DNA of 51,960 nt from a phage: sequence record PZ000615.1; one strand, 5' to 3'. Positions within the stretch are counted from its first letter, which is position 1, and every line of letters starts with the position of its first letter. Under the pieces are notes generated by a model. It was not told where the DNA came from. It made no database searches and worked only from the letters and a program-made list of their open reading frames with translations. Below are positions 368 through 51,960 of the stretch, piece after piece. The position numbers were made by a program, and so were the translations under genes.

Positions 368-412
368 AATAGCACTTTTTGTTAAACCAGTTGTCTTGTT
401 GAGTGTTATTAT
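368..412 (+). promoter_or_regulatory. Promoter-like cassette (palindromic element + -10-like hexamer)
   Basis: AATAGCACTTTTTGTTAAA 368-386; TATTAT 407-412, 22 nt after TTGTTA; upstream of helicase. Confidence 0.4.
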
Positions 413-450
413 ATCGGAATATTACTGTAAACGTAAGAGATAAATGCGCT

Positions 451-2484: not shown

Positions 2485-2902
2485 TAAAGGCGATTACCTT
2501 GAATATTACGAGCGCGATCCAAGCGACACCAGAAAGGAGGAGGCGCACCAAAACGATAGCGCCTCTTGGGTTAAGTATCACTATCCGGAAATAATTTTCT
2601 GGCACACGGTCAACGAGGGTAAGAAAACAATCACCCAGGCAGACCGAGATCAGAGAGCTGGATTATTGAAGGGGGTGAGCGATAACGTATTCCTGAATGG
2701 AGTTTGTTACAAATTCCCGTTTGGAGCCATTGAGCTTAAGCGCGTCAATAAGAGCGGAAAGGGGGCAGCGTCACCAGTCAGCGATGAACAGAAAGCATAT
2801 CTCAAGCGCGTTCGTTCTGCTGGAGGTTTCGCCGCCGTCGCTTACGGGTTCGAACAGTTCAAGCTGGCTTTCCTTGATATGATAGGGAAACAGCACGAAT
2901 AG
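2426..2902 (+). CDS. VRR-NUC-like (PD-(D/E)xK) nuclease
   Basis: Track ORF; motif region FWHTVNEG...GVSDNVFL...GAIELKRVNKSGKG...EQKAYL resembles VRR-NUC; start uncertain (59-nt overlap with helicase). Confidence 0.5.
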   Translation: MGRVRTLLAAKTLEGKLITDKGDYLEYYERDPSDTRKEEAHQNDSASWVKYHYPEIIFWHTVNEGKKTITQADRDQRAGLLKGVSDNVFLNGVCYKFPFGAIELKRVNKSGKGAASPVSDEQKAYLKRVRSAGGFAAVAYGFEQFKLAFLDMIGKQHE

Positions 2903-2933
2903 CTAAAACAGCCGGAAGGGAATCCGGTATTAT
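2889..2933 (+). promoter_or_regulatory. Promoter-like cassette (variant element)
   Basis: CAGCACGAATAGCTAAA variant; hairpin CCGGAAGGGAATCCGG in spacer; TATTAT 2928-2933; upstream of dam. Confidence 0.35.
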
Positions 2934-2960
2934 CATCTCAACTTAAACAGGAGATTGATT

Positions 2961-3695: not shown

Positions 3696-3928
3696 TGAGT
3701 AACTTCAACATTAAATACCTTACAAAGTCTGAAAAGTGGGCTTTATATCGCGCTCTGGTTGTTCTGGTTCTTATTGAGTCTGGATATAACAAAGACCATT
3801 TCGAGCTTGCTGATTCTCTTGATATGTCATTTGAGGAGATCGAAAGCATCCCTTATGACCAGTGGAAAGCCTTGATCATGAAAGACCTGCACGAGATGAT
3901 CGCAGATTGTCCGGAGGACTTTGGCTAA
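3695..3928 (+). CDS. Hypothetical protein
   Basis: Track ORF; TAATG start/stop overlap with dam. Confidence 0.5.
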   Translation: MSNFNIKYLTKSEKWALYRALVVLVLIESGYNKDHFELADSLDMSFEEIESIPYDQWKALIMKDLHEMIADCPEDFG

Positions 3929-4170
3929 TGGATATTCGCGAGGGTAGAGCGGCAGTATGGGAGCACGCAAAGGAATGCGGGATTGATGAAGATATAGCAC
4001 GAATTGCTAAACATTTCGACATCAAAGAGATTAATATCTTCACTCCTGGCGACGGCGGCAAGCTTACATATTTAAACGAACGCCCTCGCAAATTTCACAA
4101 GATAGCGGTTGCAGCGAAATCAGAAAAAACGCTTGACCAATACCTTAAAGAGGCAAGAGGCAAGAAATGA
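3928..4170 (+). CDS. Hypothetical protein (contains an internal copy of the promoter element)
   Basis: ATG at 3928 overlapping upstream stop (TAATG); track ORF 3862..4170 has an upstream non-ATG extension. Confidence 0.4.
   Translation: MDIREGRAAVWEHAKECGIDEDIARIAKHFDIKEINIFTPGDGGKLTYLNERPRKFHKIAVAAKSEKTLDQYLKEARGKK
3993..4037 (+). promoter_or_regulatory. Promoter-like cassette located inside a coding region
   Basis: TATAGCACGAATTGCTAAA then TAATAT at 4032-4037 with the same 22-nt spacing; inside ORF 3928..4170. Confidence 0.3.
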
Positions 4171-6207: not shown

Positions 6208-6788
6208 TGATTATCATTTTGAACGCACCAGCCGGAGCCGGAAAAGACACCATTCAGCAAGCAATTGCGGAGCTGCATGAGGTGTCACAGCTCAGCTTTA
6301 AAAAGCCTATGTTCGCTATGGCTAATGCCATGCTTGGCGATCTGGGGTTCATGGAATTCATGGACGCCTACAACAACCGCGAGCGAAAAGAAAAGCCACT
6401 TGAATTGCTTCACGGCTCAAGCCCTCGGCAGTTCATGATCTGGCTGAGTGAGAGCGTTATTAAACCTCACTTTGGCGACAAGCATTTTGGTAATCTGCTT
6501 TATGACGATTACATTATGCACGAGAATGACGGCTACTATGTCGGAGTTGTCAGCGACGGCGGGTTTGAGAGTGAGACGATTGCTCTGATCGATACTGGAG
6601 TTCCGGTTCGTCTTGTTCGACTTCATCGTGACGGCTACTCGTTTGCCGGAGACTCACGCGATTATGTCAGTCTGCCGCTCTACGCTAATAGCCCTACGTA
6701 TGACTACCAAGAGTTTGACGTTCAGTTAACTGAAGGTTTGCCAGTTGTGGCGGCGCTGGATATTCTCTCAATGGTCGGGTTGAAATAG
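6207..6788 (+). CDS. P-loop kinase, deoxynucleoside monophosphate kinase-like
   Basis: N-terminal IIILNAPAGAGKDT (GxxxxGKD/T P-loop as in phage dNMP kinases); TAATG coupling to upstream gene. Confidence 0.55.
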   Translation: MIIILNAPAGAGKDTIQQAIAELHEVSQLSFKKPMFAMANAMLGDLGFMEFMDAYNNRERKEKPLELLHGSSPRQFMIWLSESVIKPHFGDKHFGNLLYDDYIMHENDGYYVGVVSDGGFESETIALIDTGVPVRLVRLHRDGYSFAGDSRDYVSLPLYANSPTYDYQEFDVQLTEGLPVVAALDILSMVGLK

Positions 6789-6828
6789 CACGAATTGCTA
6801 AAACTTGCGCAACGGAATGCGCTATTAT
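6784..6828 (+). promoter_or_regulatory. Promoter-like cassette
   Basis: AATAGCACGAATTGCTAAA 6784-6802 (contains stop TAG of upstream gene); hairpin GCGCA-ACGGAA-TGCGC; TATTAT 6823-6828. Confidence 0.4.
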
Positions 6829-6867
6829 CTTTTCAACGAAACGAAACACCCAAACAGGAGAAACACC

Positions 6868-11200: not shown

Positions 11201-11236
11201 TTGTCGTTCCTTTGTGCGTTTCGTTTCGATGGAGCT

Positions 11237-11281
11237 AATATAACAAAACCCGCCGGAGCGGGTTTATCAAAAAGTGCTATT
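11237..11281 (-). promoter_or_regulatory. Promoter-like cassette (minus orientation) overlapping terminator hairpin
   Basis: Minus strand AATAGCACTTTTTGATAAA, hairpin CCCGCTCCGGCGGG in spacer, TATATT 22 nt after TTGATA; upstream of small membrane ORF. Confidence 0.35.
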
Positions 11282-12756: not shown

Positions 12757-12789
12757 TTCATTACCTTACTGTTTTGTTGGATTGAGTAA

Positions 12790-12836
12790 AGCTTAACGCC
12801 TTTCTCGTTATTTGTCTTTAGCAATTTGTGCTATTT
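12790..12836 (-). promoter_or_regulatory. Promoter element copy (minus orientation), weak -10
   Basis: Minus strand AATAGCACAAATTGCTAAA; hexamer at the expected position is TTAAGC (poor -10). Confidence 0.25.
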
Positions 12837-13678: not shown

Positions 13679-13707
13679 GATGCGTTCTCCTCTGTTTCGT
13701 TGAGATA

Positions 13708-13752
13708 ACTATACCAAAGCCAGCCCCAGGAGTTTTAGCAATTCGTGCTATC
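13708..13752 (-). promoter_or_regulatory. Promoter-like cassette (minus orientation)
   Basis: Minus strand GATAGCACGAATTGCTAAA then TATAGT after 22 nt; upstream of secreted-protein gene. Confidence 0.4.
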
Positions 13753-14650: not shown

Positions 14651-14674
14651 GAGAGCCTCCTGTTTCGATGAGAT

Positions 14675-14721
14675 GATTATGACCGATTCGAGACTGATTG
14701 GTTTAGCAAAAAGTGCTATTT
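14675..14721 (-). promoter_or_regulatory. Promoter-like cassette (minus orientation), first of leftward operon
   Basis: Minus strand AATAGCACTTTTTGCTAAA; CATAAT-like hexamer ~23 nt downstream; then CATCGAAACAGGAGG-ATG. Confidence 0.4.
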
Positions 14722-15458: not shown

Positions 15459-15503
15459 AATAGCACTTTTTGCTAAAACCGCACCCCTGGCTTTTGCTAT
15501 TAT
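15459..15503 (+). promoter_or_regulatory. Promoter-like cassette, first of rightward array
   Basis: AATAGCACTTTTTGCTAAA 15459-15477; TATTAT 15498-15503; then CAACGAAACGAAAGG. Confidence 0.4.
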
Positions 15504-15539
15504 TATCTCAACGAAACGAAAGGCACAAAGGAAAACGTC

Positions 15540-15830
15540 ATGAAACTGGTACGCGAATCTATCAAGCTTGGCACTGAGTACAACGGCAAATGGTGGTTCA
15601 CTATCGACGGCAACGACGCCGATGAGCTGGAAGCTGCTCAAGATCGCCTTTCATCAATGGAGACTGGATCTCACACTGTTAAGGCTGACGGCTCACTGAA
15701 AGCCGAGAGATGGAATGACTACTGTGACGGATGCCCTTGTTATGAAGATGGTCACTCTGCTGGATACTGGATTCCTGTCGACATGGTTCCAGCATTCAAG
15801 GCAGCATGGAAGATTGCAAAGAAAGCCTAA
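15540..15830 (+). CDS. Hypothetical protein (first gene of rightward early array)
   Basis: Track ORF; stop TAA abuts promoter element. Confidence 0.5.
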   Translation: MKLVRESIKLGTEYNGKWWFTIDGNDADELEAAQDRLSSMETGSHTVKADGSLKAERWNDYCDGCPCYEDGHSAGYWIPVDMVPAFKAAWKIAKKA

Positions 15831-15873
15831 TAGCACGAATTGCTAAACATGAGCCGGAGCAATCCGGCATAAT
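15829..15873 (+). promoter_or_regulatory. Promoter-like cassette
   Basis: AATAGCACGAATTGCTAAA; hairpin CCGGAGCAATCCGG; CATAAT 15868-15873. Confidence 0.4.
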
Positions 15874-15913
15874 AGCCCCATCGAAACGAAACAGTAGCTA
15901 CAAGGAAAAGAAA

Positions 15914-16069
15914 ATGGTACAGTTCAACATCATCGATACTGGCAACAAGGCACTCCTCGGGTTCTTCCGGTTCAAGTGTACTGGTGACGGTTTCACAGGT
16001 TACGGCAACATCGAGCTCGACGCATACCAGGAATGGGCTGAGGCTCGCTACATTGGAGATAAAGACTGA
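15914..16069 (+). CDS. Small hypothetical protein (51 aa)
   Basis: ATG at 15914 with AAGGAAAAG SD; track ORF 15806..16069 has an upstream extension that reads through the promoter element. Confidence 0.35.
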   Translation: MVQFNIIDTGNKALLGFFRFKCTGDGFTGYGNIELDAYQEWAEARYIGDKD

Positions 16070-16212
16070 TGATACATATCGGATGGTTGGTAAACGGGAC
16101 GTTCTACCCTGCTAGCGAGGCTAAGCGGGTAGACATGATCAGAGAGTTCAGGGGCGACAAGGTCGACATCGTCGAGGTTTATGCGGAGCGTTATCCATGC
16201 GTAAAATACTGA
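16069..16212 (+). CDS. Small hypothetical protein (47 aa), uncertain
   Basis: ATG overlapping upstream stop, GGAGA SD; overlaps start of next gene. Confidence 0.25.
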   Translation: MIHIGWLVNGTFYPASEAKRVDMIREFRGDKVDIVEVYAERYPCVKY

Positions 16213-16712
16213 TGGTGGCCTCATACGTGGGGCTGTTCACCCTGGCAAACGTGAACGTCGCTATGTTCGGAGTGTGGGTTACACCGTTCAACGCGCTATT
16301 CATTATTGCTGCTGATATGGTGATACGCGACAGAATCCAGTATGACGGCGGAGCGCTTGTTGCAATATTCGCCTCACTGCTTGCTGGTTCTGCAACAATA
16401 GCCATAGTTCCGGATGCAGGTCGAATAGCCATAGCGTCAAGCTTGTCCGTTGTCCTTGCTGGCCTTGCCTCTGCTGTTGCATTTAGGTTGAGGCGTGGGG
16501 ATTTCTACAGAAAGTCATATCAGGCAAATGTGATCGCTGCTGCTGTTGACTCAATCGCTTTCCCTGTGATAGCGTTCGGCTCGGTCATGATGTATGTGAC
16601 ACTCGCGCAGTTTGCAGCCAAAGTCATTGGCGCTTCTGTCATACTCTACTTAATGAAAAGGTGTTTCAATAATGACAGTTCACTTTCACGGCTCTCCAAT
16701 AACGGGCGGTAA
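16197..16712 (+). CDS. YhhQ/VUT-family-like integral membrane protein (putative queuosine-precursor transporter)
   Basis: Multi-pass hydrophobic protein; segments FNALFIIAADMVIRDRI, AFRLRRGDFYRKSYQANVIAAAVDSIAFPVIAF and QFAAKVIGASVILYLM align by eye with recalled E. coli YhhQ; alternative start 16212. Confidence 0.55.
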   Translation: MRKILMVASYVGLFTLANVNVAMFGVWVTPFNALFIIAADMVIRDRIQYDGGALVAIFASLLAGSATIAIVPDAGRIAIASSLSVVLAGLASAVAFRLRRGDFYRKSYQANVIAAAVDSIAFPVIAFGSVMMYVTLAQFAAKVIGASVILYLMKRCFNNDSSLSRLSNNGR

Positions 16713-16719
16713 GGGTGAT

Positions 16720-17493
16720 ATGATGGCTCGCGTTGCATATCGCGGCGCGGGTGCATTCGTATCTTACGCTCACCCAAAGCAGATCAACATGACCCTTGAG
16801 GTTGCTGACGCTGTATGCATAGACAACGGCGCATTCTCAAAGAAGAATACCGGACGCGAGACGGATTGGAACGGGTTTTACAACGACTTTCTCCCAAGGT
16901 TTATCGACCATCCGAAACTCAGATTCTTTGTTATTCCGGATGACATAAGCGGAGACGACCAGGAGAACGACAGGCTTATCCGTGAGCTACCAGCGCACCT
17001 TAAACACAAAGGCGCTCCGGTATGGCACTTGCACGAGAGCATAGATCGCCTTGTTCACCTGGCTAACGAGTGGGAGTATGTATGTCTTGGCTCATCAGGA
17101 GAATACTACTCAATCCGATCCCCTAAGTGGCGAGCAAGGATGGATGAGGCATTCAACGCTCTGATCTCTCGCGGGTATTCTGCTAAGCTTCACGGCCTGA
17201 GGATGCTGGATGGTCGAGTTCTTGGCAATTATCCACTTGACCAGGCCGACTCAACCAATATCGCCATTAATGCGCCAAAGTGGTTATGCAAGCACGTGCA
17301 GATGACTATAGAGGCTTGCCGGATGCAGACGCATTTCAGTAAGTGGATTGACACAACAGATCCGAAGGTAGCTCTTGATAACCTGATCTCTGCCGGAGGA
17401 ACTAAAGAGCAAATGCTATCTCAGAGGTGCGCAATCCTGAAATCGTGCATTGAGTCAGTCAAACCTCCGCATAAGTCTGACTGGTTAAAATAG
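16720..17493 (+). CDS. TGT-fold protein, putative DpdA-like DNA transglycosylase (tentative)
   Basis: Track ORF 16672..17493; probable ATG 16720 after AGGGTGA; CIDNGAF resembles TGT DSGGFQ catalytic-Asp motif, YVCLGSSGEY resembles TGT YAVGGLAVGE; no zinc CxCxxC..H motif; adjacent to YhhQ-like gene. Confidence 0.4.
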   Translation: MMARVAYRGAGAFVSYAHPKQINMTLEVADAVCIDNGAFSKKNTGRETDWNGFYNDFLPRFIDHPKLRFFVIPDDISGDDQENDRLIRELPAHLKHKGAPVWHLHESIDRLVHLANEWEYVCLGSSGEYYSIRSPKWRARMDEAFNALISRGYSAKLHGLRMLDGRVLGNYPLDQADSTNIAINAPKWLCKHVQMTIEACRMQTHFSKWIDTTDPKVALDNLISAGGTKEQMLSQRCAILKSCIESVKPPHKSDWLK

Positions 17494-17533
17494 CACTTTT
17501 TGCTAAACGCCGCCCGACGTAATCGGGCATAAT
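17489..17533 (+). promoter_or_regulatory. Promoter-like cassette
   Basis: AATAGCACTTTTTGCTAAA; hairpin GCCCGACGTAATCGGGC; CATAAT 17528-17533. Confidence 0.4.
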
Positions 17534-17562
17534 GCAGTTACACCAATCAAAGGAGCAATACC

Positions 17563-17856
17563 ATGAAAAAGAAAACCAACCTCGTTCGCGTTCGTCTGCT
17601 CACTGACGGCTATTTCCGCGACAGCGACAATCTGAAAGTATGGCTCAAGCCGCGCACCTTTCCCGTCATCGTCAACGCTGAGATCGTGAAGTCTGAAAGC
17701 GGGTTGCCAGTTTTCGCAAAAGTGCCAATGTCAGAATGCGTGGCTATCGGCATGAATCAGGAAATCTTCGGTAACGGCCTGGAAGGGTGCGGATTGTCCT
17801 GGGCGCTGCATGAGGTTGATGACTTATGCGGAAACCCTGAAGCTGAGATCCTGTAA
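17563..17856 (+). CDS. Hypothetical protein
   Basis: Track ORF; AAGGAG SD. Confidence 0.5.
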   Translation: MKKKTNLVRVRLLTDGYFRDSDNLKVWLKPRTFPVIVNAEIVKSESGLPVFAKVPMSECVAIGMNQEIFGNGLEGCGLSWALHEVDDLCGNPEAEIL

Positions 17857-18083
17857 TGGCTCGCCGTCAAGTGACCTGCAAGTGTGGGGCTTACAGTTTC
17901 CCGCATAGGTTCGGCGGCGGCAAATGTGACGGGCTTGTCATCGTGATATCGGCGGCGGGTTCGTCCCACTGCCAATATTGCCACCTGAATAATAACGGCT
18001 GTGAAGTAATAAAAGGTCAGGAGCATCCGCGAGAGTGTCCGGCTGTGATTGACTTCTGTGAATATAACGAGGTGAAATTGTGA
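17856..18083 (+). CDS. Small Cys-rich (putative zinc-binding) protein
   Basis: 10 Cys in 75 aa (CKCG...C..C...CQYC...C...C...C); TAATG coupling. Confidence 0.45.
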   Translation: MARRQVTCKCGAYSFPHRFGGGKCDGLVIVISAAGSSHCQYCHLNNNGCEVIKGQEHPRECPAVIDFCEYNEVKL

Positions 18084-18346
18084 ATCAGTTGCTGCTTGAC
18101 ATGATCATAAGCAATCTTGATGTTGAGTGCTTAGTCATTCCATCAACTATGGAGTTCGTATGTCTCGACCTCGACGGCGATGTTTACGCATACGAGGGGT
18201 CTGTTTATCGTGACGATGACGAATGGGTCAACGAACCGGATGGGGATCTACATTACATCGGAACCATCTCCGGATTCAACTGTAGCAGGGTTTGGCGTGA
18301 ATGCCTGTTCACTGCTGACCAATGGCGCGAGGCTATCAGCAAATGA
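18080..18346 (+). CDS. Hypothetical protein
   Basis: Track ORF with GTG start after GAGGTG. Confidence 0.4.
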   Translation: MNQLLLDMIISNLDVECLVIPSTMEFVCLDLDGDVYAYEGSVYRDDDEWVNEPDGDLHYIGTISGFNCSRVWRECLFTADQWREAISK

Positions 18347-18540
18347 AAACCTTCGAGAGCAAAGAGTACCACGATGAGGACGGCGACGGCTTAAGCGTTG
18401 ACTGTCATGACACTCACGTTGAGATTATGACCTGGAGCACTACAGGCTGCGGCGTATTCTCCGATCCGAAAGTCCTGCGTGAGATTGCTGCTCAACTGGT
18501 ACGCGGCGCGGAAGAACTAGAAAGGCAGGCTAATTCATGA
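18343..18540 (+). CDS. Hypothetical protein
   Basis: ATGA coupling to upstream gene; track ORF 18322..18540 has an upstream extension. Confidence 0.4.
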   Translation: MKTFESKEYHDEDGDGLSVDCHDTHVEIMTWSTTGCGVFSDPKVLREIAAQLVRGAEELERQANS

Positions 18541-18803
18541 AAAAGGTTGACAAGGGTTTATCTTTCTTTGCTGCGCTGGCTATAGTGGCGGCTATCATCG
18601 GCGGAGCTACAGTGTCCGAGGGCTACAGGATTCACAAGCTGATCAACAGTGTCGATGATGACGGGAAAGTTATCTGTGCTCTGACTGGTAACGAGCGAAC
18701 GCGAACCTATCCGGTGCTGGCTGGTAAGGTAACGGTAATGCAAACAACCCAGGAACAAGAGTATTATTGCGCTCCAGGTAAATTATACTGGGTTGCGAAA
18801 TAG
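18537..18803 (+). CDS. Small protein with N-terminal hydrophobic anchor/signal
   Basis: N-terminal LSFFAALAIVAAIIGGA; stop TAG inside promoter element. Confidence 0.45.
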   Translation: MKKVDKGLSFFAALAIVAAIIGGATVSEGYRIHKLINSVDDDGKVICALTGNERTRTYPVLAGKVTVMQTTQEQEYYCAPGKLYWVAK

Positions 18804-18843
18804 CACTTTTTGTTAAACATACCCGCCGTCGTGCGGGTATTAT
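18799..18843 (+). promoter_or_regulatory. Promoter-like cassette
   Basis: AATAGCACTTTTTGTTAAA; hairpin ACCCGCCGTCGTGCGGGT; TATTAT 18838-18843. Confidence 0.4.
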
Positions 18844-18871
18844 TGTTTTAACGAAACGAAAGGAGCAAATC

Positions 18872-19105
18872 ATGAGTCATGTAATCAACCAGAGAGCTAT
18901 CAACGAAACTCACCGCCAGGTATTGTGGGCTATCTTCATCACTCGCGACGGTCAGCGCTATGCGGTGCGCGATCACGGGTTTAAATGCAACACATACGCC
19001 GAGTTAGACGGGCGTTGGGTTCACACCTCAAACCTGTCAAGCTTCTTGGTCTGGAATGGCGAGTTCCAAGGTCACGACGATATCAGCAGTCTGATCGAAG
19101 AATAG
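18872..19105 (+). CDS. Hypothetical protein
   Basis: Track ORF; AAGGAG SD; stop abuts promoter element. Confidence 0.5.
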   Translation: MSHVINQRAINETHRQVLWAIFITRDGQRYAVRDHGFKCNTYAELDGRWVHTSNLSSFLVWNGEFQGHDDISSLIEE

Positions 19106-19145
19106 CACGAATTGCTAAAACTCAATATTGGTGTTGCGCTATAGT
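19101..19145 (+). promoter_or_regulatory. Promoter-like cassette
   Basis: AATAGCACGAATTGCTAAA; TATAGT 19140-19145. Confidence 0.4.
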
Positions 19146-19175
19146 AACCCCAACAACCAATCAGAGGAAATACCG

Positions 19176-19490
19176 ATGCAAGTATTCATTAAACTCGTTG
19201 ACACCTACTACATGGCGGCTCAGGGTATGGCTGGCGTTATCGTTAAGGGTGAAACCTTAAGCTCACATCCGGATTACGCAGCAAAGTCAGGCGATTCCGT
19301 TTTTGTGGATATCCGCGATATGAGGCCTTTCATGCGTCCTGAGCATCACCATTTGTGTGACGACTGGCTCGATAAGCCGACGCGATACCTGTACACCATC
19401 CCAGGCGTGTATGACACAATGGCAACGTGCGAGGTCGTCGATAACCCGTTTGCGCACTGGAACCGCATCAAGAGCGGCGAACTACACTAA
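19176..19490 (+). CDS. Hypothetical protein
   Basis: ATG 19176 with GAGGAAA SD; track ORF 19128..19490 has an upstream extension. Confidence 0.45.
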   Translation: MQVFIKLVDTYYMAAQGMAGVIVKGETLSSHPDYAAKSGDSVFVDIRDMRPFMRPEHHHLCDDWLDKPTRYLYTIPGVYDTMATCEVVDNPFAHWNRIKSGELH

Positions 19491-19548
19491 GACGATAAAC
19501 CACCAGGGGAGAATTTACTCCCCTCACAACGCGATAGAGGGCGTTTAA

Positions 19549-19860
19549 ATGGCATCAAAAAACAACGAAATTCGACACATCCACGATCTGAAGATTTCCC
19601 CTGAGCATTTCCGAAATGTGTGCCTCGGACTTAAGACGGCAGAATACCGACGCAACGACCGGAATTTTGAGCAGTTCGATACAATCCGGCTGCGCGAGTA
19701 TGACAACGGGCATACTGGAAATGAGATCTCGGCAATTATCACCCACGTTCTGGATCTGGATGAGTTCCATGACTTCCCAGACAATGCGCCATTTGCTGGT
19801 TACGTCATGCTGTCAATCCAGTTAATCAAGGGGAGCCGGAAATGCGCAAGTATCGAATAG
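19549..19860 (+). CDS. ASCH/PUA-like (DUF3850-like) domain protein
   Basis: HDLKISPEHFRNVCLGLKTAEYRRNDRNFEQFDTIRLREYD matches recalled DUF3850 N-terminal pattern. Confidence 0.5.
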   Translation: MASKNNEIRHIHDLKISPEHFRNVCLGLKTAEYRRNDRNFEQFDTIRLREYDNGHTGNEISAIITHVLDLDEFHDFPDNAPFAGYVMLSIQLIKGSRKCASIE

Positions 19861-20054
19861 CTCTAATCGAAACAACATCCGCATTTGGCGATCCAATTAA
19901 GTGCTACGCCGTTCAGGTTCGTGTTGCTCTGTTCTGGTGGGTGACGGTTGAAACGTGCGGTCATCTCTGCCAGGCTCGCTATTGGATCAACAAGAGCGGC
20001 GCTCCACATCGCAAAGAGCATATCATTAAAATCGTGAATAGCACGAAAAGCTAA
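19842..20054 (+). CDS. Hypothetical protein
   Basis: Track ORF; GGGGAG SD; 3' end reads into promoter element. Confidence 0.4.
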   Translation: MRKYRIALIETTSAFGDPIKCYAVQVRVALFWWVTVETCGHLCQARYWINKSGAPHRKEHIIKIVNSTKS

Positions 20055-20081
20055 AACATCCAGGTGTGGTCTTGCTATAGT
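20037..20081 (+). promoter_or_regulatory. Promoter-like cassette (variant element)
   Basis: AATAGCACGAAAAGCTAAA; TATAGT 20076-20081. Confidence 0.35.
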
Positions 20082-20110
20082 GAGATCACACCAAACGAGA
20101 TGATTCGAAC

Positions 20111-20341
20111 ATGATCGTAAAGAATAAGTTGGGCGAATACCACGCGAGCGACAAGACCGTTGAGCATGGTTTCGGATGGGGCGGTGGGTTGTACTTTCGA
20201 ACCAAAACAGGAAAATGGAAGTTCAATGGCATCGGGCAACCAGTAGCGAATGCGCTGGAAGTCGAGAAGTCAGACATCAATCCGGAAACTAAACTCCCGT
20301 GGGGGTTAGATCCGTCAACTCATACAAAGGTGGAATCATGA
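20111..20341 (+). CDS. Hypothetical protein
   Basis: Track ORF. Confidence 0.45.
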   Translation: MIVKNKLGEYHASDKTVEHGFGWGGGLYFRTKTGKWKFNGIGQPVANALEVEKSDINPETKLPWGLDPSTHTKVES

Positions 20342-20655
20342 AACTCCTGTGTCTCAACTCACCAGTGAAAGGCCTCATCAAAGAGGGTAAGCGTTACGAC
20401 ATCGTTAACGAAAGCAGCAAGGCGACAACCAAGGTCATCTTTGACGAGTTCGGGGTTGCGTTCTACCTGACTCGGGTTCCTGGCTCGGCTGGTCTGTATC
20501 AAACACGAATCGGTAGCGGCGTATTCCTGTTCCGCATGGTTGACGACAGTTTTGAGAAGCATCAAAAGAAACTGCGCAACGAGCGCCGAATCGAGCTTGC
20601 GATCCTGTTTGTTGGGGTGCTTCTGGTAACTGGATACATGATGATGCAGGGGTAA
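20338..20655 (+). CDS. Hypothetical protein with C-terminal TM helix
   Basis: ATGA coupling; C-terminal LAILFVGVLLVTGYMMM. Confidence 0.45.
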   Translation: MKLLCLNSPVKGLIKEGKRYDIVNESSKATTKVIFDEFGVAFYLTRVPGSAGLYQTRIGSGVFLFRMVDDSFEKHQKKLRNERRIELAILFVGVLLVTGYMMMQG

Positions 20656-20657
20656 CA

Positions 20658-20948
20658 GTGGACGGCGAAAACATGCGCTTTTACCCTTCCCAGGCGGGAG
20701 GGGTTAAAACTCACTACATGCACGACTTGCCACCTGGCTTGACGATGAAACGCATTCGCGAGGTCGGAAAAGAGTACGCCAAGAACGCTGGCCTTGAGTT
20801 TAAGGCCAAAAAGATACGAGGACGCAACCTACTCGTGATCCGCATGAGCTTTGTTCCATGGTTGATGGATGACTTCTCGTTTGCAGATGGTGTCAAGGGT
20901 TGTCAGTGTGACGCTTGCGAGCGTTGGTATAAGGAATCAGGAAAATGA
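20658..20948 (+). CDS. Hypothetical protein
   Basis: Track ORF (GTG start after AGGGG). Confidence 0.4.
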   Translation: MDGENMRFYPSQAGGVKTHYMHDLPPGLTMKRIREVGKEYAKNAGLEFKAKKIRGRNLLVIRMSFVPWLMDDFSFADGVKGCQCDACERWYKESGK

Positions 20949-21154
20949 TTAAGCGTTTAAAGCCGATTGATATCAGGCCTGGCGATCTGGTTTATTGTGG
21001 ATGGACTGGTAAAAAGAAATGGCGTCGGGTTATCGGCGTGGAGTGTAAATCCGCCTATCGCTACAATCTGTATATGGGTGATCAATGGGCGATTAGCGCC
21101 GGATCTGCTTGCGAGTTCCTGGTGAAGTCAAATCGCAAGCCGCATGGTTTCTAA
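20945..21154 (+). CDS. Hypothetical protein
   Basis: ATGA coupling; stop abuts promoter element. Confidence 0.45.
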   Translation: MIKRLKPIDIRPGDLVYCGWTGKKKWRRVIGVECKSAYRYNLYMGDQWAISAGSACEFLVKSNRKPHGF

Positions 21155-21198
21155 ATAGCACGAATTGCTAAAACGGGATGTTCGCTGACTGGTATATT
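21154..21198 (+). promoter_or_regulatory. Promoter-like cassette
   Basis: AATAGCACGAATTGCTAAA; TATATT 21193-21198. Confidence 0.4.
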
Positions 21199-21230
21199 GT
21201 GTTCATCCCAACACGAAAGAGGAAATGAAG

Positions 21231-21467
21231 ATGGAACTAGTTAAAGTCATTGCAGCAATCATGGAAGCGATCCACAGAGATTCAGAGGCGGTTGTTGTTT
21301 TCGAAGAGTCTGAATCCAAAGGCATCAAGTCAATCACTTTTTACAGTGACAGCGAGGACGGGTTGACCGCGCACCTGATCGCATCGGCAGGGACTGGGAA
21401 GCGTGATTTTAAAAACGCTATCGGGCTTGTTGTTTATCACTCACGCGCTATCAAAGAGGTTATCTAA
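21231..21467 (+). CDS. Hypothetical protein
   Basis: ATG 21231 at better spacing from AAGAGGA than track start 21225. Confidence 0.45.
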   Translation: MELVKVIAAIMEAIHRDSEAVVVFEESESKGIKSITFYSDSEDGLTAHLIASAGTGKRDFKNAIGLVVYHSRAIKEVI

Positions 21468-21468
21468 C

Positions 21469-21981
21469 ATGAAAGAAAAATACATGCGTGCAACAGCAGT
21501 TTCATTCGTCGCGCCGTTCACAATGAACGGGTTCACAGCAGGGCGACGCTACTTTTCCAACAAGGGCGCTTATATCTTCCAGCATCGAAACGGAGATGTT
21601 TATGGCATCACGAGAACCGGAGTAACTGATGATGATGGGCAGGATCGTGTTGTCTGCCTGGTTGAGACAAGCCTTTTCAACGGTGAAACCCTGGTTGCTC
21701 GAATCGAACACGAATACGACGAAATCGCGGTGGCTCGAAAAATCAAGAGATACCGTCGCATGGCGATTAACGCCTTTGCAATGTACGCCCGTCGATGGTG
21801 GAACATGAGCAAGAAACAGGCTCGCGCCTGGGGTCGAATGCAAGCTGAGCCGTTCTTCTACAATGACGGCGACGTTGTCCCAGGAACTGTGATTCACGAC
21901 TTCATTGAGCAGTGCGATATTTGGGAAGTTGACCAGGAGCTTTTCAACGACGCTGTTTATGAAGAGATTTCATGCTGGTAA
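21469..21981 (+). CDS. Hypothetical protein
   Basis: ATG 21469 directly after upstream stop; track ORF 21403..21981 has an upstream extension. Confidence 0.45.
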   Translation: MKEKYMRATAVSFVAPFTMNGFTAGRRYFSNKGAYIFQHRNGDVYGITRTGVTDDDGQDRVVCLVETSLFNGETLVARIEHEYDEIAVARKIKRYRRMAINAFAMYARRWWNMSKKQARAWGRMQAEPFFYNDGDVVPGTVIHDFIEQCDIWEVDQELFNDAVYEEISCW

Positions 21982-22025
21982 ATAGCACTAATTGCTAATC
22001 TTGCGCGAGGTCATTTTGATATAGT
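21981..22025 (+). promoter_or_regulatory. Promoter-like cassette
   Basis: AATAGCACTAATTGCTAAT; hairpin GAGGTCA...TGACCTC spanning TATAGT 22020-22025. Confidence 0.4.
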
Positions 22026-22066
22026 GACCTCATTCAAGCAAAGCAACCAATCAGAGGAATGAACTC

Positions 22067-22795
22067 ATGAAATTATCACTCAAAGCCATCGCAACCAATC
22101 GCATCAACGGATCTGTAACCGCGTTCAAGGTGTACCCAGTGTTAAATGACATGCTGGCAAGCCTGACGGATTCCGGATACTGGTTCATCAACGATAATGG
22201 TGAGAAGCAGTTCGCACACAAAGGAATCGTTCGCGACGGTTTTAGCGATCCGAAAAAGCAATACAGTTTTGACCTTTGTTTGCAGGTCAAAACGCTGGAG
22301 GAAACTATAAAGAGTCAGATTGACAAGTCTATCCGGTATTCTTTAAAGCCAGGTGGTGATTTATACGGGGCTTTGCGTGGAGGATTCCAAGGCGGCGGAT
22401 ATGTTCGGGATTTTTCATTCAGCAATGCATCTAACGCGGCGGCAAGTGCAGTCAAGGAAATGCAATCTGTTTGCGGAATCATTGGTGACGGCACTATCAA
22501 AGTCAAGATCGGTGACTTGCGCAGCGATGAGAAAAAGGAGCGTGACGCGGCTGTTGCTGAACTTGATAAGCATCTTCCAGCATACCGACGTTCTGATAAA
22601 GGGTTTGGTCTGGTTGAAAGCATTGAGTGGATCGGCAAGCTTAACGCGGCTCACAGTTCAGACTGTCAGAAATATGAGGGTATACTTGAAGATCTTATGG
22701 AGGCGTTCGACATTCGCACCATTGACGGACTCAAGCATTTTGCCTCGAACCTGAAGCGCTCGTCTGAAATTATCGACGCTGTTCGCAAGAAATAG
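22067..22795 (+). CDS. Hypothetical protein (242 aa)
   Basis: Track ORF; GAGGAATGAAC SD; stop TAG inside promoter element. Confidence 0.5.
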   Translation: MKLSLKAIATNRINGSVTAFKVYPVLNDMLASLTDSGYWFINDNGEKQFAHKGIVRDGFSDPKKQYSFDLCLQVKTLEETIKSQIDKSIRYSLKPGGDLYGALRGGFQGGGYVRDFSFSNASNAAASAVKEMQSVCGIIGDGTIKVKIGDLRSDEKKERDAAVAELDKHLPAYRRSDKGFGLVESIEWIGKLNAAHSSDCQKYEGILEDLMEAFDIRTIDGLKHFASNLKRSSEIIDAVRKK

Positions 22796-22835
22796 CACTA
22801 ATTGCTAAAACAATGCCGGAGCAATCCGGCATAAT
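22791..22835 (+). promoter_or_regulatory. Promoter-like cassette
   Basis: AATAGCACTAATTGCTAAA; hairpin CCGGAGCAATCCGG; CATAAT 22830-22835. Confidence 0.4.
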
Positions 22836-22865
22836 GAACTCATCGAAACAAACGGAGCTATAGAG

Positions 22866-24038: not shown

Positions 24039-24228
24039 GGTCAAAGCTGGAGATCGAATCAAGTGCGTAACATCCATCATGCAAGGCTGTTTTACTGTTG
24101 GTTGTGAGTATGCGGCGGAGAAGGTTCTAAGTGGCGGGTTCGTTACGGTTTACAATGACAATGGCGATCCTACAATTCTGGATTACCCTCACGATCCGGA
24201 TTACGGAAAGTTTGAAAAAGTAGATTGA
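24031..24228 (+). CDS. Hypothetical protein
   Basis: ATG 24031 after AAGGAGAG; track ORF 23962..24228 has an upstream extension. Confidence 0.4.
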   Translation: MSKVKAGDRIKCVTSIMQGCFTVGCEYAAEKVLSGGFVTVYNDNGDPTILDYPHDPDYGKFEKVD

Positions 24229-24386
24229 CGGCATCTGCTCTGACTGGTACATTTAGAACCGTAGACGAAAGAGGCGCTTACATGCGCAACTTGCCGAGAA
24301 AGGCGACATAAAATAAATCGGGCATCCGTGAACGCGTAGACGCCAGGGGGAGTCGTAACCCCCAACCATTCAGAGGAGATTGACGA

Positions 24387-30926: not shown

Positions 30927-30954
30927 TTGACCGTTTAACAAAAAGTGCTATTAT
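30927..30954 (+). promoter_or_regulatory. Sigma70-like promoter (TTGACC-N16-TATTAT) with inverted palindromic element in spacer; upstream of capsid gene
   Basis: TTGACC 30927-30932, TATTAT 30949-30954; spacer contains TTTAACAAAAAGTGCTATT, the reverse complement of the early element. Confidence 0.45.
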
Positions 30955-33671: not shown

Positions 33672-34075
33672 TGCATTACGAACTATATGAGGCTAGCGCT
33701 GAGTTTGTGGCGTCAATCATCCAGGATAGTGACAACCTTGTTGCCTGGGAGAATATCTCTTTCACTCCACCTGTAGACGGATCGGAATACTACCGATTCA
33801 ACTACAAAGAGGCTGACACGGTAACGGTATCACTTGATCGCAAGTGTGCTTACTTTGTCGGAATGGTTCAGGTCGATGTTGTGTTTGCGCCTGGCTCCGG
33901 CATTAGTGTAGCAAGAAAGTTAGCCGCCGATGTTGCAAAAAGTGCTGTCGATGGTACAATGCTTGCGACAGGTTATATTTTATCTCGTGGTGAGGTTCAC
34001 CCCGTTCAGAAATCAGACACGGGCTGGTTCATTCCGGTTCGGTTCTATGTTAGATGTGAAACAAAAGGAGCATAA
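33671..34075 (+). CDS. Putative tail terminator/completion protein
   Basis: TAATG coupling; position upstream of major tail gene. Confidence 0.4.
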   Translation: MHYELYEASAEFVASIIQDSDNLVAWENISFTPPVDGSEYYRFNYKEADTVTVSLDRKCAYFVGMVQVDVVFAPGSGISVARKLAADVAKSAVDGTMLATGYILSRGEVHPVQKSDTGWFIPVRFYVRCETKGA

Positions 34076-45963: not shown

Positions 45964-45985
45964 GCGCCTGCGGGCGCTTTTTTTG
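45964..45985 (+). terminator. Rho-independent terminator
   Basis: GCGCC-TGC-GGGCGC followed by T7. Confidence 0.55.
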
Positions 45986-46010
45986 TTTCTTACTCAATGG
46001 TACAATAGCG

Positions 46011-46029
46011 TTTAGCAAAAAGTGCTATT
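46011..46029 (+). promoter_or_regulatory. Inverted copy of palindromic element upstream of tail fibre gene
   Basis: TTTAGCAAAAAGTGCTATT (reverse complement of AATAGCACTTTTTGCTAAA) embedded in larger inverted repeat AATAGCG...GCTATT; between terminator 45964-45985 and tail fibre start. Confidence 0.3.
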
Positions 46030-50325: not shown

Positions 50326-50355
50326 ATCTGACTCCTGTTCGTTTGTGTGTTGTGG

Positions 50356-50399
50356 AGTATACCCGATCTCATTCGTTGCGTTTAGCAAAAAGTGCTAAT
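50356..50399 (-). promoter_or_regulatory. Promoter-like cassette (minus orientation) upstream of exonuclease-erf-ssb operon
   Basis: Minus strand AATTAGCACTTTTTGCTAAA then TATACT ~21 nt downstream, then CAGGAG SD and ATG 50325. Confidence 0.4.
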
Positions 50400-51854: not shown

Positions 51855-51900
51855 GGCGCGATCATAATAACCGCGCCCGTGTGGGATTGTTTAGCTTTTA
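51855..51900 (-). promoter_or_regulatory. Promoter-like cassette (minus orientation, variant) upstream of primase
   Basis: Minus strand AATAAGCACTAAAAGCTAAA; hairpin GGGCGCGG...CGCGCCC in spacer; TATTAT; GGAGA SD. Confidence 0.35.
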
Positions 51901-51960
51901 GTGCTTATTTTACTACTCGGAGCATTTCTCGACGGTCACAGCGAGTGGTTAGAGCCTTGC

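Follow-up and report, generated by a model that had tools for sequence, protein, structure and literature searches.

The window analysed here, the complete 51,960-nt sequence of record PZ000615.1, comes from an Eclunavirus-like, T1-like member of the Drexlerviridae and contains numerous copies of a short element placed at a fixed distance from hexamers that resemble the -10 box, which raises the question of what this element is and which protein reads it. This repeat was described in 2024 for phage TLS, and also for T1, Rtp and Rogue1, with its function left open (PMC11447400). In the literature, we found no source that names the TLS-type repeat a marbox and no paper that maps the start sites of Drexlerviridae promoters.

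The repeated element and the marbox

A fuzzy 20-mer search of the window identified 22 copies of AATAGCAC-N3-TTGYTAAAM, 19 of which are directed toward a downstream gene; the core TAGCA-N5-TGCTA, with at most one mismatch, yields 20 matches against 1.55 expected (none of 100 shuffles reaches 20). The 13 plus-strand positions given in the original prediction are all correct, whereas among the six on the minus strand three are correct and three are off by 1 to 8 nt (the elements are at 11281, 12835, 13752, 14720, 50399 and 51908). That list was also incomplete, lacking two reversed copies in the late region, at 30952 and 46029, one of them within the sigma-70 promoter of the capsid gene. A degenerate intragenic copy at 33949 is seen only with a looser search.

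By its sequence, the repeated element is a marbox, a 20-bp asymmetric site. Marboxes are read by MarA, SoxS, Rob and, in Enterobacter and Klebsiella, RamA, which are monomeric, two-HTH activators that belong to the AraC/XylS family; MarA, SoxS and Rob are activators of the bacterial antibiotic and stress responses. The marbox definition GCAnnWWnTGnnAAA (PMC12052159) is matched perfectly by 17 window copies, with 0.76 expected by chance, and the confirmed consensus AYnGCACnnWnnRYYAAAY (PMC3709825), with at most one mismatch, by 20 copies, with 0.79 expected. Among 119 copies from 8 genomes, 13 of the 14 specified positions of the latter consensus are satisfied in at least 96%, and so are the degenerate positions (W in 100%; Y at position 15 is C in 61% and T in 34%). 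The last consensus position (Y) is satisfied in just 34% of the copies; micF, too, has A at this position. Of the 20 positions in the mar marbox ATGCCACGTTTTGCTAAATC, 16 agree with the phage consensus. We put at ~1e-5 the probability that an unrelated 19-mer, in the class II orientation, would fit the marbox at each of its 10 specified positions. In the control phage phiEt88, a lambdoid phage with a related terminase, there is 1 marbox match against 0.98 expected.

The element had been described as a palindromic operator, but the dyad is limited to arms that are complementary over 5 bp only, and the conserved flanks are asymmetric, with A2, C8, T12 and A18 pairing with the dyad partner in 0-2% of the 119 copies; the flanking bases of the marbox are asymmetric likewise. 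The arms are also unequal in tolerance: G5 is invariant and its partner is C or T. The suggestion of a phage-specific recognition element gives way to the host marbox consensus, which is satisfied except at one specified position and in the class II geometry of micF. Between this phage and Ec_L1, the marboxes differ at 4.1% of positions, compared with 15-16% for the upstream coding sequence and spacer and 22% for the downstream region, a pattern that we count as indicative of selection on the marbox.

Promoter architecture of the cassettes

A hexamer of the -10 type (at least 4 of 6 matches, with A as second and T as sixth base) begins at element position 40, that is, 39 nt after the element start as predicted, in 17 of the 21 scored window copies, those that pass a stricter core filter (which excludes the copy at 51908); the distance of 22 nt proposed originally is right if it is measured between the last base of TGCTA (position 17) and the hexamer. 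The cassette occurs throughout the Drexlerviridae, and in 8 genomes the hexamer occupies this position in 119 of 162 copies (73%) against a per-position background of 1.9%. For the -35 box, the best match is 2-3 of 6 in 104 of the 119 copies, and canonical sigma-70 promoters show no enrichment in a scan (15 against 21 expected). The leader is conserved, albeit more loosely than had been claimed: C51 is present in 74% and A52 in 88% of the copies, and CGAAAC at positions 54-59 in ~55-75%. Three features tie the element to initiation, in agreement with the prediction of promoter cassettes: the constant position of the hexamer, the lack of a -35 box and the conservation of C-A where transcription would start. 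The cassettes in the window are as follows.

368..419, plus strand: cassette with the helicase gene downstream (marbox 368-388, -10 TATTAT 407-412, predicted start ~419); 0 mismatches to both consensus patterns, Ec_L1 orthologue identical; overlaps the region in which the Cro-like regulator gene has its face-to-face promoter
2889..2940, plus strand: cassette with the Dam methyltransferase gene (ATG 2961; Pfam match) downstream (marbox 2889-2909, -10 TATTAT 2928-2933); spacer hairpin CCGGA..TCCGG, in Ec_L1 GTGCA..TGCGC instead
3993..4044, plus strand: intragenic marbox TATAGCACGAATTGCTAAAC with TAATAT 4032-4037, within the small ORF 3862-4170; conserved in place in Ec_L1 (3984) and T1 (40293); may be an internal promoter
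6784..6835, plus strand: cassette before the small genes preceding the lysis cassette (marbox 6784-6804, -10 TATTAT 6823-6828, leader CAACGAAACGAAAC); spacer hairpin GCGCA..TGCGC
11230..11281, minus strand: cassette (marbox 11281-11261, -10 TATATT 11242-11237, gene start 11200); spacer hairpin CCGC..GCGG followed by a T-run, terminator-like by scan
12784..12835, minus strand: marbox with a weak -10 (TTAAGC/TAAGCT), gene start 12756; perfect match to the published pattern despite the poor -10
13701..13752, minus strand: cassette (marbox 13752-13732, -10 TATAGT 13713-13708, gene start 13678)
14669..14720, minus strand: cassette, first of the leftward array (marbox 14720-14700, -10 CATAAT 14681-14676, gene start 14650)
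15459..15510, plus strand: cassette, first of the rightward array (marbox 15459-15479, -10 TATTAT 15498-15503, gene start 15540, DUF5417)
15829..15880, plus strand: cassette with the exact 20-mer consensus (-10 CATAAT 15868-15873, leader CATCGAAACGAAAC, gene start 15914); upstream stop TAA overlaps element positions 1-2
17489..17540, plus strand: cassette (-10 CATAAT 17528-17533, gene start 17563); upstream stop TAG is element positions 3-5
18799..18850, plus strand: cassette (-10 TATTAT 18838-18843, gene start 18872); spacer hairpin and T-rich tail, terminator-like by scan; upstream side orthologous to Ec_L1 and downstream side not, hence a mosaic junction
19101..19152, plus strand: cassette (-10 TATAGT 19140-19145, gene start 19176); -10 enclosed by a hairpin
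20037..20088, plus strand: cassette (-10 TATAGT 20076-20081, gene start 20111); -10 enclosed by a 13-bp hairpin (dG -19.7, z -6.2)
21154..21205, plus strand: cassette (-10 TATATT 21193-21198, gene start ~21225-21231)
21981..22032, plus strand: cassette (-10 TATAGT 22020-22025, gene start 22067)
22791..22842, plus strand: cassette (-10 CATAAT 22830-22835, gene start 22866)
50348..50399, minus strand: cassette with the exonuclease VIII-like gene (ATG 50325) downstream (-10 TATACT one base early, 50361-50356)
51857..51908, minus strand: weaker marbox ATAAGCACTAAAAGCTAAAC with the primase gene (ATG 51829) downstream (TATTAT 51869-51864); -10 in the loop of a terminator-like hairpin behind the regulator gene, a terminator-around-promoter layout also found in T1 (35982) and U136B (35144)

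About 19 forward marboxes are each separated by 18 bp from a downstream sigma-70 -10 hexamer, often with G or TG at -14/-15. In class II promoters of the Mar/Sox/Rob type, the bound activator touches the alpha-CTD and sigma region 4, substituting for -35 recognition. The G of GCAC (G5) in the phage element is 35 nt before the hexamer, as it is in the E. coli class II promoter micF, where the box, likewise in the forward orientation, has its centre at -41.5 counted from the annotated 5' end of micF (geometry from PMC9638938). The phage cassettes follow the published class II rules, namely forward orientation, clustering near -41 and no recognisable -35 (PMC10268841). The predicted centre near -42, like that of a class II activator site, stands, as does the point that TTGCTA is too distant from the hexamer for a -35 role.

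The spacer hairpin that had been pointed out is real and family-wide: across the Drexlerviridae, element positions 18-62 fold with a mean z of -2.74 compared with -0.20 for random windows (p=1e-19). It sits wholly upstream of the predicted start site, however, and so would belong to the transcript of the upstream gene rather than to the promoter's own RNA. The variable G+C-rich hairpin between marbox and start site would be a terminator or 3'-end structure of the upstream gene's RNA. As noted originally, most tandem cases have the upstream gene's stop codon inside the element or running into it (ORF ends compared with element positions); with the hairpin as the upstream terminator, each cassette would combine stop codon, terminator and promoter in ~80 nt.

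Candidate readers of the element

The main rival to a host activator is a regulator encoded by the phage itself.

1..352 (5' part) and 51905..51960 (3' end), minus strand: gene of a Cro-like HTH regulator, a 136-aa ORF across the circular junction (junction translation)

According to this explanation, which we regard as unlikely, a dimer of the Cro-like protein would bind TAGCA-N5-TGCTA near -42 and activate RNA polymerase by contacting sigma region 4, in the manner of lambda cI at PRM, and the likeness to the marbox would be coincidence or convergence. The regulator gives a weak P22_Cro Pfam match, its homologues carry PF15943/PF14549, and its stop codon is within the 51908 element. It is conserved in the family (51-60% identity to the regulators of T1, U136B and Rogue1), with homologues in 825 phage records (tblastn), where all 25 of those listed across the ranking are Drexlerviridae-type records of at most 52 kb. 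It has a Cro/YdaS-type HTH with conserved recognition-helix residues S71, Q73, W78 and R81; an HTH dimer would fit the inverted 5-bp arms with their 10-bp spacing, lambda cI at PRM being a precedent for a dimeric HTH activator centred at -42, and one element lies in the 5' leader region of the regulator gene itself. The T1 regulator gene has a good sigma-70 promoter as read from sequence (TTGAAT-17-TATAAT), which fits an immediate-early activator. Against such an operator stand the asymmetric flanks (A2/A18 and C8/T12 complementary in 0-2%), the different tolerance of the arms and the low estimated chance (~1e-5) of an accidental marbox in class II orientation. Furthermore, helix positions 72 and 76 of the regulator are highly variable (entropy 3.5 and 2.8 bits), whereas the DNA motif is invariant across the subfamilies, and the unrelated, T4-like phages Lw1, RB16, RB43, Matisse and JC03 keep a homologous cassette (marbox, -10 and leader) before small genes, yet none is among the listed regulator homologues.

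RNA polymerase might also read the element itself, by UP-like alpha-CTD or unusual sigma region 4 contacts together with an extended -10, so that the promoters would be constitutive. The T- and A-runs in the element favour this scenario, as do G at -14 in 84% and TG in 45% of the copies, which make the promoters partly of the extended -10 type. We consider it improbable: the UP consensus is A/T-only and spans -59 to -38, whereas the element has six invariant G/C positions (G5, C6, C8, G14 and others) foreign to that consensus and extends from ~-51 to -32 relative to the predicted start site, and the exact marbox match is left unexplained. UP-like enhancers were proposed by the TLS authors, who also raised the analogy with stoperators (PMC11447400). 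A repeat without a role in initiation, either a stoperator-type roadblock or a recombination boundary travelling beside promoters, would accord with copies that are intergenic and aligned with transcription and with the several window/Ec_L1 pairs that are orthologous on one side only, such that recombination junctions coincide with the element. Mosaic junctions are expected beside any conserved repeat, however, and the fixed -10 in 73% of the 162 copies, the missing -35 box and the C-A start context, along with the virulent lifestyle of these phages, in which no repressor or immunity system is annotated, render this possibility very unlikely. Least credible of all is sigma appropriation in the style of T4, with TTTGCTAAA read by a phage MotA/AsiA-type pair. 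This sequence does resemble the T4 MotA box, of consensus (a/t)(a/t)(a/t)TGCTT(t/c)A, but that box has its centre at -30, at a distance of 11-13 bp from the -10, and the phage TGCT ends 23 bp before the hexamer, so that the spacing contradicts a MotA-box reading of TTTGCTAAA; the invariant GCAC half would remain unexplained, and neither MotA nor AsiA domains came up in a Pfam scan that covered most of the 67 non-structural ORFs.

A proposed host activator and the copies in the late region

The same Pfam scan, which took in most of the 67 non-structural ORFs (those outside the chunk with SSB, annealing protein and exonuclease) as ten concatenated strings, detected neither HTH_AraC nor HTH_18; MarA and SoxS compared with all ORFs gave only E > 1 (phmmer), and MarA matched 137 phage records in tblastn, none of them Drexler-type. 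Because the phage thus has no detectable AraC-type activator, the activator would be that of the host, and we consider it reasonably probable that the cassettes are class II promoters of the MarA/SoxS/Rob/RamA type. The marbox would take the place of the missing -35 box, and transcription would start at the conserved C-A, 7 nt past the hexamer, continuing into the A-rich leader ATCGAAACGAAA, the Shine-Dalgarno sequence and the start codon. Rob, being constitutively made, would serve as the default activator, and MarA, SoxS or RamA would act under stress. Ordinary broth supports vigorous growth of T1-like phages. MarA and SoxS are kept low as long as the cell is unstressed, and Rob is then mostly in inactive aggregates (PMC10268841). 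With the activators low or inactive and the phage nonetheless vigorous, either basal Rob would suffice on near-consensus sites or infection would activate the host factor.

One cassette-bearing GenBank record has Pseudomonas syringae as its host label (as given by the record); to our knowledge, Pseudomonas lacks MarA and Rob. We count this label and the mismatch at the last Y against a host activator; likewise, part of the asymmetry of the element could reflect contacts made by RNA polymerase and not by the activator.

Three copies in the window stand apart from the forward cassettes, and one of them coincides with the capsid promoter.

30927..30954, plus strand: strong sigma-70 promoter close to consensus (TTGACC-16 nt-TGc-TATTAT), lying ~50 nt before the major capsid gene (ATG 31006)
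46009..46029, minus strand: reversed marbox with a terminator on one side and the tail-fibre gene (ATG 46051) on the other
33929..33949, minus strand: degenerate intragenic copy GACAGCACTTTTTGCAACATC, 2 mismatches to the 19-nt consensus

The 33949 copy lies within a tail gene, has no downstream gene and is probably non-functional. The 46029 copy has no class II -10 on its own strand; it is conserved in Ec_L1 (45484), and in T1 a similar copy adjoins the tail-fibre gene (34887). The reversed marbox 30933-30952 makes up the capsid promoter's spacer and extends 4 nt into its -10, an architecture common to six genomes (this phage, T1, U136B, SECphi27, cp17 and Ec_L1), and the capsid promoter is similar to that part of the E. 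coli rob promoter which is proximal to the -10. In pbpG, a marbox in the spacer leads to repression by MarA, SoxS and Rob (PMC12052159), and repression is accordingly to be predicted for the capsid promoter, where the marbox-binding protein would act as a repressor while activating the early promoters. As predicted originally, most non-structural genes could answer to one regulator, and the near-perfect marboxes in place of the -35 box in about twenty promoters suggest that the phage borrows MarA, SoxS or Rob to turn on most of its early genes.

The repeat and its match to the marbox consensus

The window is apparently a complete phage genome in circularly permuted form, and the genome of Enterobacter phage Ec_L1 (Drexlerviridae, Eclunavirus) is ~85% identical to it. 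A fuzzy search with the 20-mer element found 22 copies in the window, and the inverted arms alone (TAGCA-N5-TGCTA, one mismatch or fewer) occur 20 times compared to 1.55 expected. The 13 plus-strand positions in the original prediction were all recovered by this search; the six minus-strand copies predicted there do exist, at coordinates that needed small corrections, and two reversed copies in the late region, at 30952 and 46029, are additional to that list, as is a degenerate intragenic copy at 33949 that came from a looser search. Between 17 and 25 copies each are present in Ec_L1, T1, U136B (Tlsvirus), Rogue1, Klebsiella phage cp17 (Webervirus), SECphi27 (Warwickvirus) and 12469II (Braunvirinae), for a total of 162 copies over the eight genomes, the window included. 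A -10-like hexamer at a fixed distance, also part of the original prediction, is found exactly at position 40, counting from the start of the element, in 17 of the 21 scored window copies and in 119 of the 162 family copies (73%), against a background of 1.9% per position. Start codons follow 70-86 nt after the element start, and comparison of ORF ends with element positions bears out the claim that the stop codon of the upstream gene usually lies inside the element or abuts it.

The repeat itself is already known. In the 2024 re-annotation of phage TLS, DeGiulio, Ramsey, Kropinski and Misra described a 21-nt direct repeat, aaATAGCACnnnTTGnTAAAA, in 21 places, oriented with transcription and located ~76 nt ahead of start codons; they reported repeats of this type in T1, Rtp and Rogue1 as well, identified only three sigma-70-like promoters in TLS, suggested that the repeats could be stoperators, enhancer sites or UP-like elements, and counted their function among the open questions of T1-like phages (PMC11447400). 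We confirmed the TLS-type repeat in T1, Rogue1 and one TLS-like phage, and the window element is of the same type: it shares with the TLS repeat the sequence (aaATAGCACnnnTTGnTAAAA, in ~18-21 copies), the orientation with transcription and a start-codon distance of ~76 nt. Four features that the TLS paper does not mention are added here: the match to the marbox, the -10 hexamer at a fixed distance, the hairpin, and the reversed copy at the capsid promoter. Our literature search turned up no paper that identifies the repeat as a class II marbox promoter; apart from the TLS study, it yielded nothing that links the marbox, Rob, MarA or SoxS with phages or Drexlerviridae, and no start-site maps for this family.

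The marbox consensus has been given in a long form, AYnGCACnnWnnRYYAAAY (PMC3709825), and in a short form, gcannwwntgnnaaa (PMC12052159). The short form has 17 exact matches in the window compared to 0.76 expected, and the long form 8 exact matches compared to 0.03 expected, or 20 compared to 0.79 when one mismatch or fewer is allowed. Among the 119 family copies with the hexamer exactly at position 40, each of 13 positions, out of the 14 that the long consensus specifies, is satisfied in at least 96% of the copies, and the degenerate positions of that consensus are satisfied as well (W in 100%; Y at position 15 is C in 61% and T in 34%); all 10 positions of the short consensus are satisfied in at least 93%. 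The mar marbox, ATGCCACGTTTTGCTAAATC, and the phage consensus agree at 16 of 20 positions, and the phage element has additional invariant bases, A4, T12 and T13.

One copy with these features lies within a gene:
3993-4044, plus strand: intragenic marbox followed by TAATAT, inside ORF 3862-4170; encodes ..DIARIAKHFDIKEINIF..
It is conserved, at the same place, in Ec_L1 and T1.

Complementarity within the element is confined to the 5-bp arms, positions 3-7 and 13-17. The bases A2, C8, T12 and A18 are equally conserved, with the dyad partners (A2/A18 and C8/T12) complementary in 0-2% of the copies, and G5 is invariant, its dyad partner being C in 61% and T in 34%. Such a pattern is expected of an asymmetric site for a monomer and not of a symmetric one for a dimer; part of the asymmetry could come from contacts with RNA polymerase. 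The description of the element as a palindromic, phage-specific operator is therefore unsupported, given that the element is asymmetric outside the arms and fits the host marbox consensus.

The marbox centre (positions 9-11, all genomes) is bimodal, with 55 TTT and 45 GAA compared to 10 TAA and 4 AAA, and orthologous elements switch between the TTT and GAA classes; the two centres could represent affinity or timing classes. Divergence across 15 orthologous pairs from the window and Ec_L1 amounts to 4.1% of positions in the marbox, nearly all of these being positions 9-11, compared to 15-16% in the adjacent coding sequence and spacer and 22% in the downstream region. For the elements at 18799, 20037, 21981, 30952, 14720 and 11281, orthology with Ec_L1 extends on one side only, so that recombination or mosaic junctions between gene modules coincide with the conserved promoter cassette.

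Core promoter geometry and the spacer hairpin

Class II promoters lack a recognisable -35 hexamer; a forward-oriented marbox overlaps that position, and sites are clustered near -41 (PMC10268841; PMC12052159); in the archetype, micF, the box is centred at -41.5 (PMC9638938). The micF promoter extracted from the MG1655 genome consists of ACAGCACTGAATGTCAAAAC, 18 nt and TAGAAT, with the G of GCAC 35 nt ahead of the hexamer and the centre of the box at -41.5 from the annotated 5' end. The phage element likewise has 35 nt between G5 and the hexamer at position 40, in the orientation of micF, and all 19 gene-proximal window copies are oriented as the micF marbox is, with GCAC distal and AAA proximal. 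The best match to a -35 hexamer reaches 2-3 of 6 bases in 104 of the 119 copies. The -10 hexamer is of the sigma-70 type (consensus TATAaT, with A2 and T6; variants TATAGT, TATTAT and CATAAT), and G is found at -14 in 84% of the 119 copies and TG in 45%. Positions 51/52, the expected location of the start site, have conserved C (74%) and A (88%). Thus, the class-II-like arrangement suggested in the original prediction is supported by the micF orientation, the 35-nt spacing, the centre at -41.5 and the lack of a -35 hexamer, and its argument that TTGCTA lies too far from the hexamer to act as a sigma-70 -35 box holds at the 23-nt spacing. A sigma-70 scan, moreover, yields fewer sites than shuffled sequence: canonical -35/-10 promoters are not enriched at 8-25.5 kb of the window, where 15 were found compared to 21 expected from shuffles.

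On sequence and geometry, we favour the interpretation of the cassettes as putative class II marbox promoters. The phage element shares with the class II Mar/Sox/Rob promoters (micF, and also lpxC P2, lpxL P1 and rfaY P1) a 20-bp asymmetric forward marbox, and both the A site GCAC and the B site YYAAA are common to the class II marboxes of E. coli and Salmonella and to the phage element. However, the bacterial sites are scattered and degenerate whereas in the phage ~19 copies, all near the consensus, are packed into a virulent genome of 52 kb, and the bimodal centre, the selected spacer hairpin, the conserved transcribed leader and the upstream stop codon in the box are found in the phage only.

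Three other classes of element were rejected because of their position or composition. The UP element, contacted by alpha-CTD, has a consensus that consists of A/T only and extends from -59 to -38; the phage element contains invariant G/C positions and spans about -51 to -32. The middle promoters of T4 resemble the cassettes in that an upstream box replaces the -35 hexamer, the sigma-70 -10 is kept and the promoters form a phage-wide class, but the MotA box is centred at -30, 11-13 bp from the -10, and is bound by a phage-encoded factor, whereas the box described here is near -41 and the factor is a putative host protein; the TGCT of the phage element ends 23 bp before the hexamer, and Pfam found no MotA or AsiA domains in most of the 67 non-structural ORFs. 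The stoperator of mycobacteriophage L5, an asymmetric, repressor-bound repeat that blocks elongation, shares with the phage repeat the orientation with transcription; it is not tied to promoters, whereas the -10 hexamer is at a fixed position in 73% of the phage copies, and the annotation of the phage includes no repressor or immunity module.

A hairpin in the spacer, as originally predicted, is detectable statistically: positions 18-62 fold with a mean z of -2.74 compared to -0.20 for controls (p = 1e-19), and 61% of the copies fold at z < -2. The paired bases all fall within positions 21-51, downstream of the marbox and ahead of the predicted start. The stem has one of two layouts: it either ends just before the -10 or encloses it. 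The stem sequences vary between copies, with compensatory change between orthologues, as in CCGGA..TCCGG at window position 2889 and GTGCA..TGCGC in the Ec_L1 counterpart, or GGGGTA..TACCCC in the T4-like phage Lw1 and GGGATA..TATCCC in a related 178-kb contig. Because the stem lies upstream of the predicted start site, only transcripts that originate at the upstream gene could contain the hairpin. The hairpin of the primase promoter is clearly a terminator: it has a T-run, and the -10 lies in its loop, a layout that is kept in T1 and U136B; a simple terminator scan accepts only 2 of the spacer hairpins, the others being without a clean T-run, and no known RNA family or tRNA was found in the cassette. 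We infer that the spacer hairpins are terminators or 3'-end structures nested in the next promoter.

The capsid promoter and the late region

Three further features are relevant here:
24225-24386, plus strand: good sigma-70 promoter TTGACG-17-(TG)TACATT, after the last small early gene
30927-30954, plus strand: near-consensus sigma-70 promoter TTGACC-16-TGcTATTAT, ~50 nt before the major capsid ATG at 31006
46009-46029, minus strand: reversed marbox between a terminator (~45964-45985) and the tail-fibre ATG at 46051

The reversed marbox at 30933-30952 coincides with the spacer of the capsid promoter and the first four bases of its -10, and this layout is kept in six genomes (the window, T1, U136B, SECphi27, cp17 and Ec_L1). 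In a 2006 study by Schneiders and Levy, MarA reportedly repressed rob by way of a marbox located between the promoter hexamers. The -10-proximal parts of the E. coli rob promoter, CAAAAAATGCTATTAT, and of the phage capsid promoter, CAAAAAGTGCTATTAT, are nearly identical, and in the capsid promoter, as in those of the pbpG/rob type, the marbox lies between the -35 and the -10 of a competent sigma-70 promoter. At pbpG, a marbox in the promoter spacer leads to repression by MarA, SoxS and Rob (PMC12052159). By analogy with this arrangement, a marbox-binding protein is predicted to repress the capsid promoter while activating the ~19 other promoters.

The reversed marbox at 46009-46029 lies 22 nt before the tail-fibre start codon and has no class II -10 on its own strand; in T1, similar copies adjoin tail-fibre genes at 34887 and 25021. 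The promoter at 24225 is followed by a leader of ~130 nt with two copies of CGTAGACG (~24261 and ~24337), and promoter and leader together sit ahead of the genes that precede terminase. The 24225-24386 segment may be a late-operon promoter with a structured leader.

The candidate activator and its implications

Searches for a phage-encoded marbox-binding protein were negative: phmmer found no MarA/SoxS homologue at E < 1 among all 594 stop-to-stop ORFs of the window, Pfam found no AraC-type HTH domain in most of the 67 non-structural ORFs (analysed as ten concatenated strings, with one chunk that contained SSB, the annealing protein and the exonuclease excluded), and a tblastn search of 50,697 phage records with MarA found no match of the Drexler type. 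The sole recognisable DNA-binding protein among those scanned is a Cro-like regulator of 136 aa, which is conserved across the family; in its recognition helix, positions 71, 73, 78 and 81 are conserved and positions 72 and 76 highly variable. The gene, on the minus strand, spans the window ends (1-352 and 51905-51960), and its putative promoter has a perfect TATAAT that faces and overlaps the -10 of the helicase marbox promoter (~407-414). The first ~45 residues of a phosphoesterase-like protein (N-terminus at 4508-4640, plus strand), ..ESGKTQRQIAQEYGMNIRTIEQRCARLAKKG.., also look like a helix-turn-helix, with none reported by Pfam at E <= 0.01.

That the element is a site for the Cro-like regulator is a serious rival to the host-activator interpretation. 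Lambda cI, a dimeric HTH protein, activates PRM from a site centred at -42, which provides a precedent, and the phage element resembles that site in its location near -42, where it touches the -35 region, and in its 5-bp inverted arms. Unlike the lambda site, however, it is asymmetric outside the arms and is not accompanied by any -35 box, and the two-fold symmetry with equally constrained half-sites that would be characteristic of a Cro/cI-type site is not seen. The phylogenetic distribution bears on the same question. Homologues of the Cro-like regulator were detected by tblastn in 825 phage records, and the 25 listed from along the ranking are all of the Drexlerviridae type, at 52 kb or less, whereas the cassette is also present in T4-like phages. 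A homologous cassette, consisting of the marbox, TATAGT, the CATCGAAAC leader, a Shine-Dalgarno sequence and ATG, precedes small genes in Lw1, RB16, RB43, Matisse, JC03 and others, and this portability favours a host factor as the binder. In Escherichia phage Lw1 (Pseudotevenvirus) and in related T4-like phages of Klebsiella, Cronobacter and Enterobacter, the cassette is found in the dexA-dda region; Lw1 has copies at 10296, 10912 and 9967, all on the minus strand, and others are present in two further comparison genomes (L078 and L086). The -10 of the Lw1 copy at 10912 lies ~11 bp further from the marbox, and the copy at 9967 has the -10 and the leader without a marbox. The lambdoid phage phiEt88 carries a related terminase, and the only genes it shares are those of the head; used as a negative control and not to probe host range, it has marboxes at chance number.

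Taken together, the lack of an AraC-type protein among the phage ORFs scanned, the portable cassette and the chance-level outgroup favour a host protein as the predicted activator. Rob, which is made constitutively, would be the default candidate, and MarA, SoxS or RamA would add to the activation under stress. Rob has a much higher affinity for the marbox than MarA or SoxS and is mostly aggregated in unstressed cells (PMC10268841). The vigour of T1-like phages in unstressed cultures, in which little MarA or SoxS is present and most of the Rob is sequestered, is a difficulty for the host-activator interpretation that needs explaining. The cassette is also carried by 'Pseudomonas phage PsgS01F' (PP134917.1, 44.7 kb), for which the listed host is Pseudomonas syringae pv. 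garcae; this label, if correct, would be awkward for a model that depends on Rob, MarA or SoxS.

From the sequences compared here, we propose, tentatively and with somewhat less than even confidence, that Drexlerviridae conduct almost all early and middle transcription through host Rob, MarA, SoxS or RamA, by way of ~20 near-consensus class II marboxes per genome, with the capsid promoter wired in the opposite sense. The class II marbox identification turns what has been explicitly listed as an open question into a simple experiment and, if correct, would make available a compact, portable terminator-promoter-leader cassette for engineering. It would also explain transcription in a very common phage family; to our knowledge, no virulent phage has previously been found to rely, genome-wide, on activators of the host stress regulon. 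Under this scenario, phage development would be coupled to the antibiotic and stress state of the host, replicating phage DNA could bring about the early-to-late switch by titrating the activator, and mar, ram and sox up-mutants, which are common among multidrug-resistant clinical isolates, could be better hosts. Phage fitness would thereby be tied to the regulators of efflux-mediated resistance in E. coli, Klebsiella and Enterobacter, in a family that includes many therapeutic Klebsiella and E. coli phages and in which TLS and U136B use as the receptor TolC, itself among the known MarA targets (PMC12052159 supplement).
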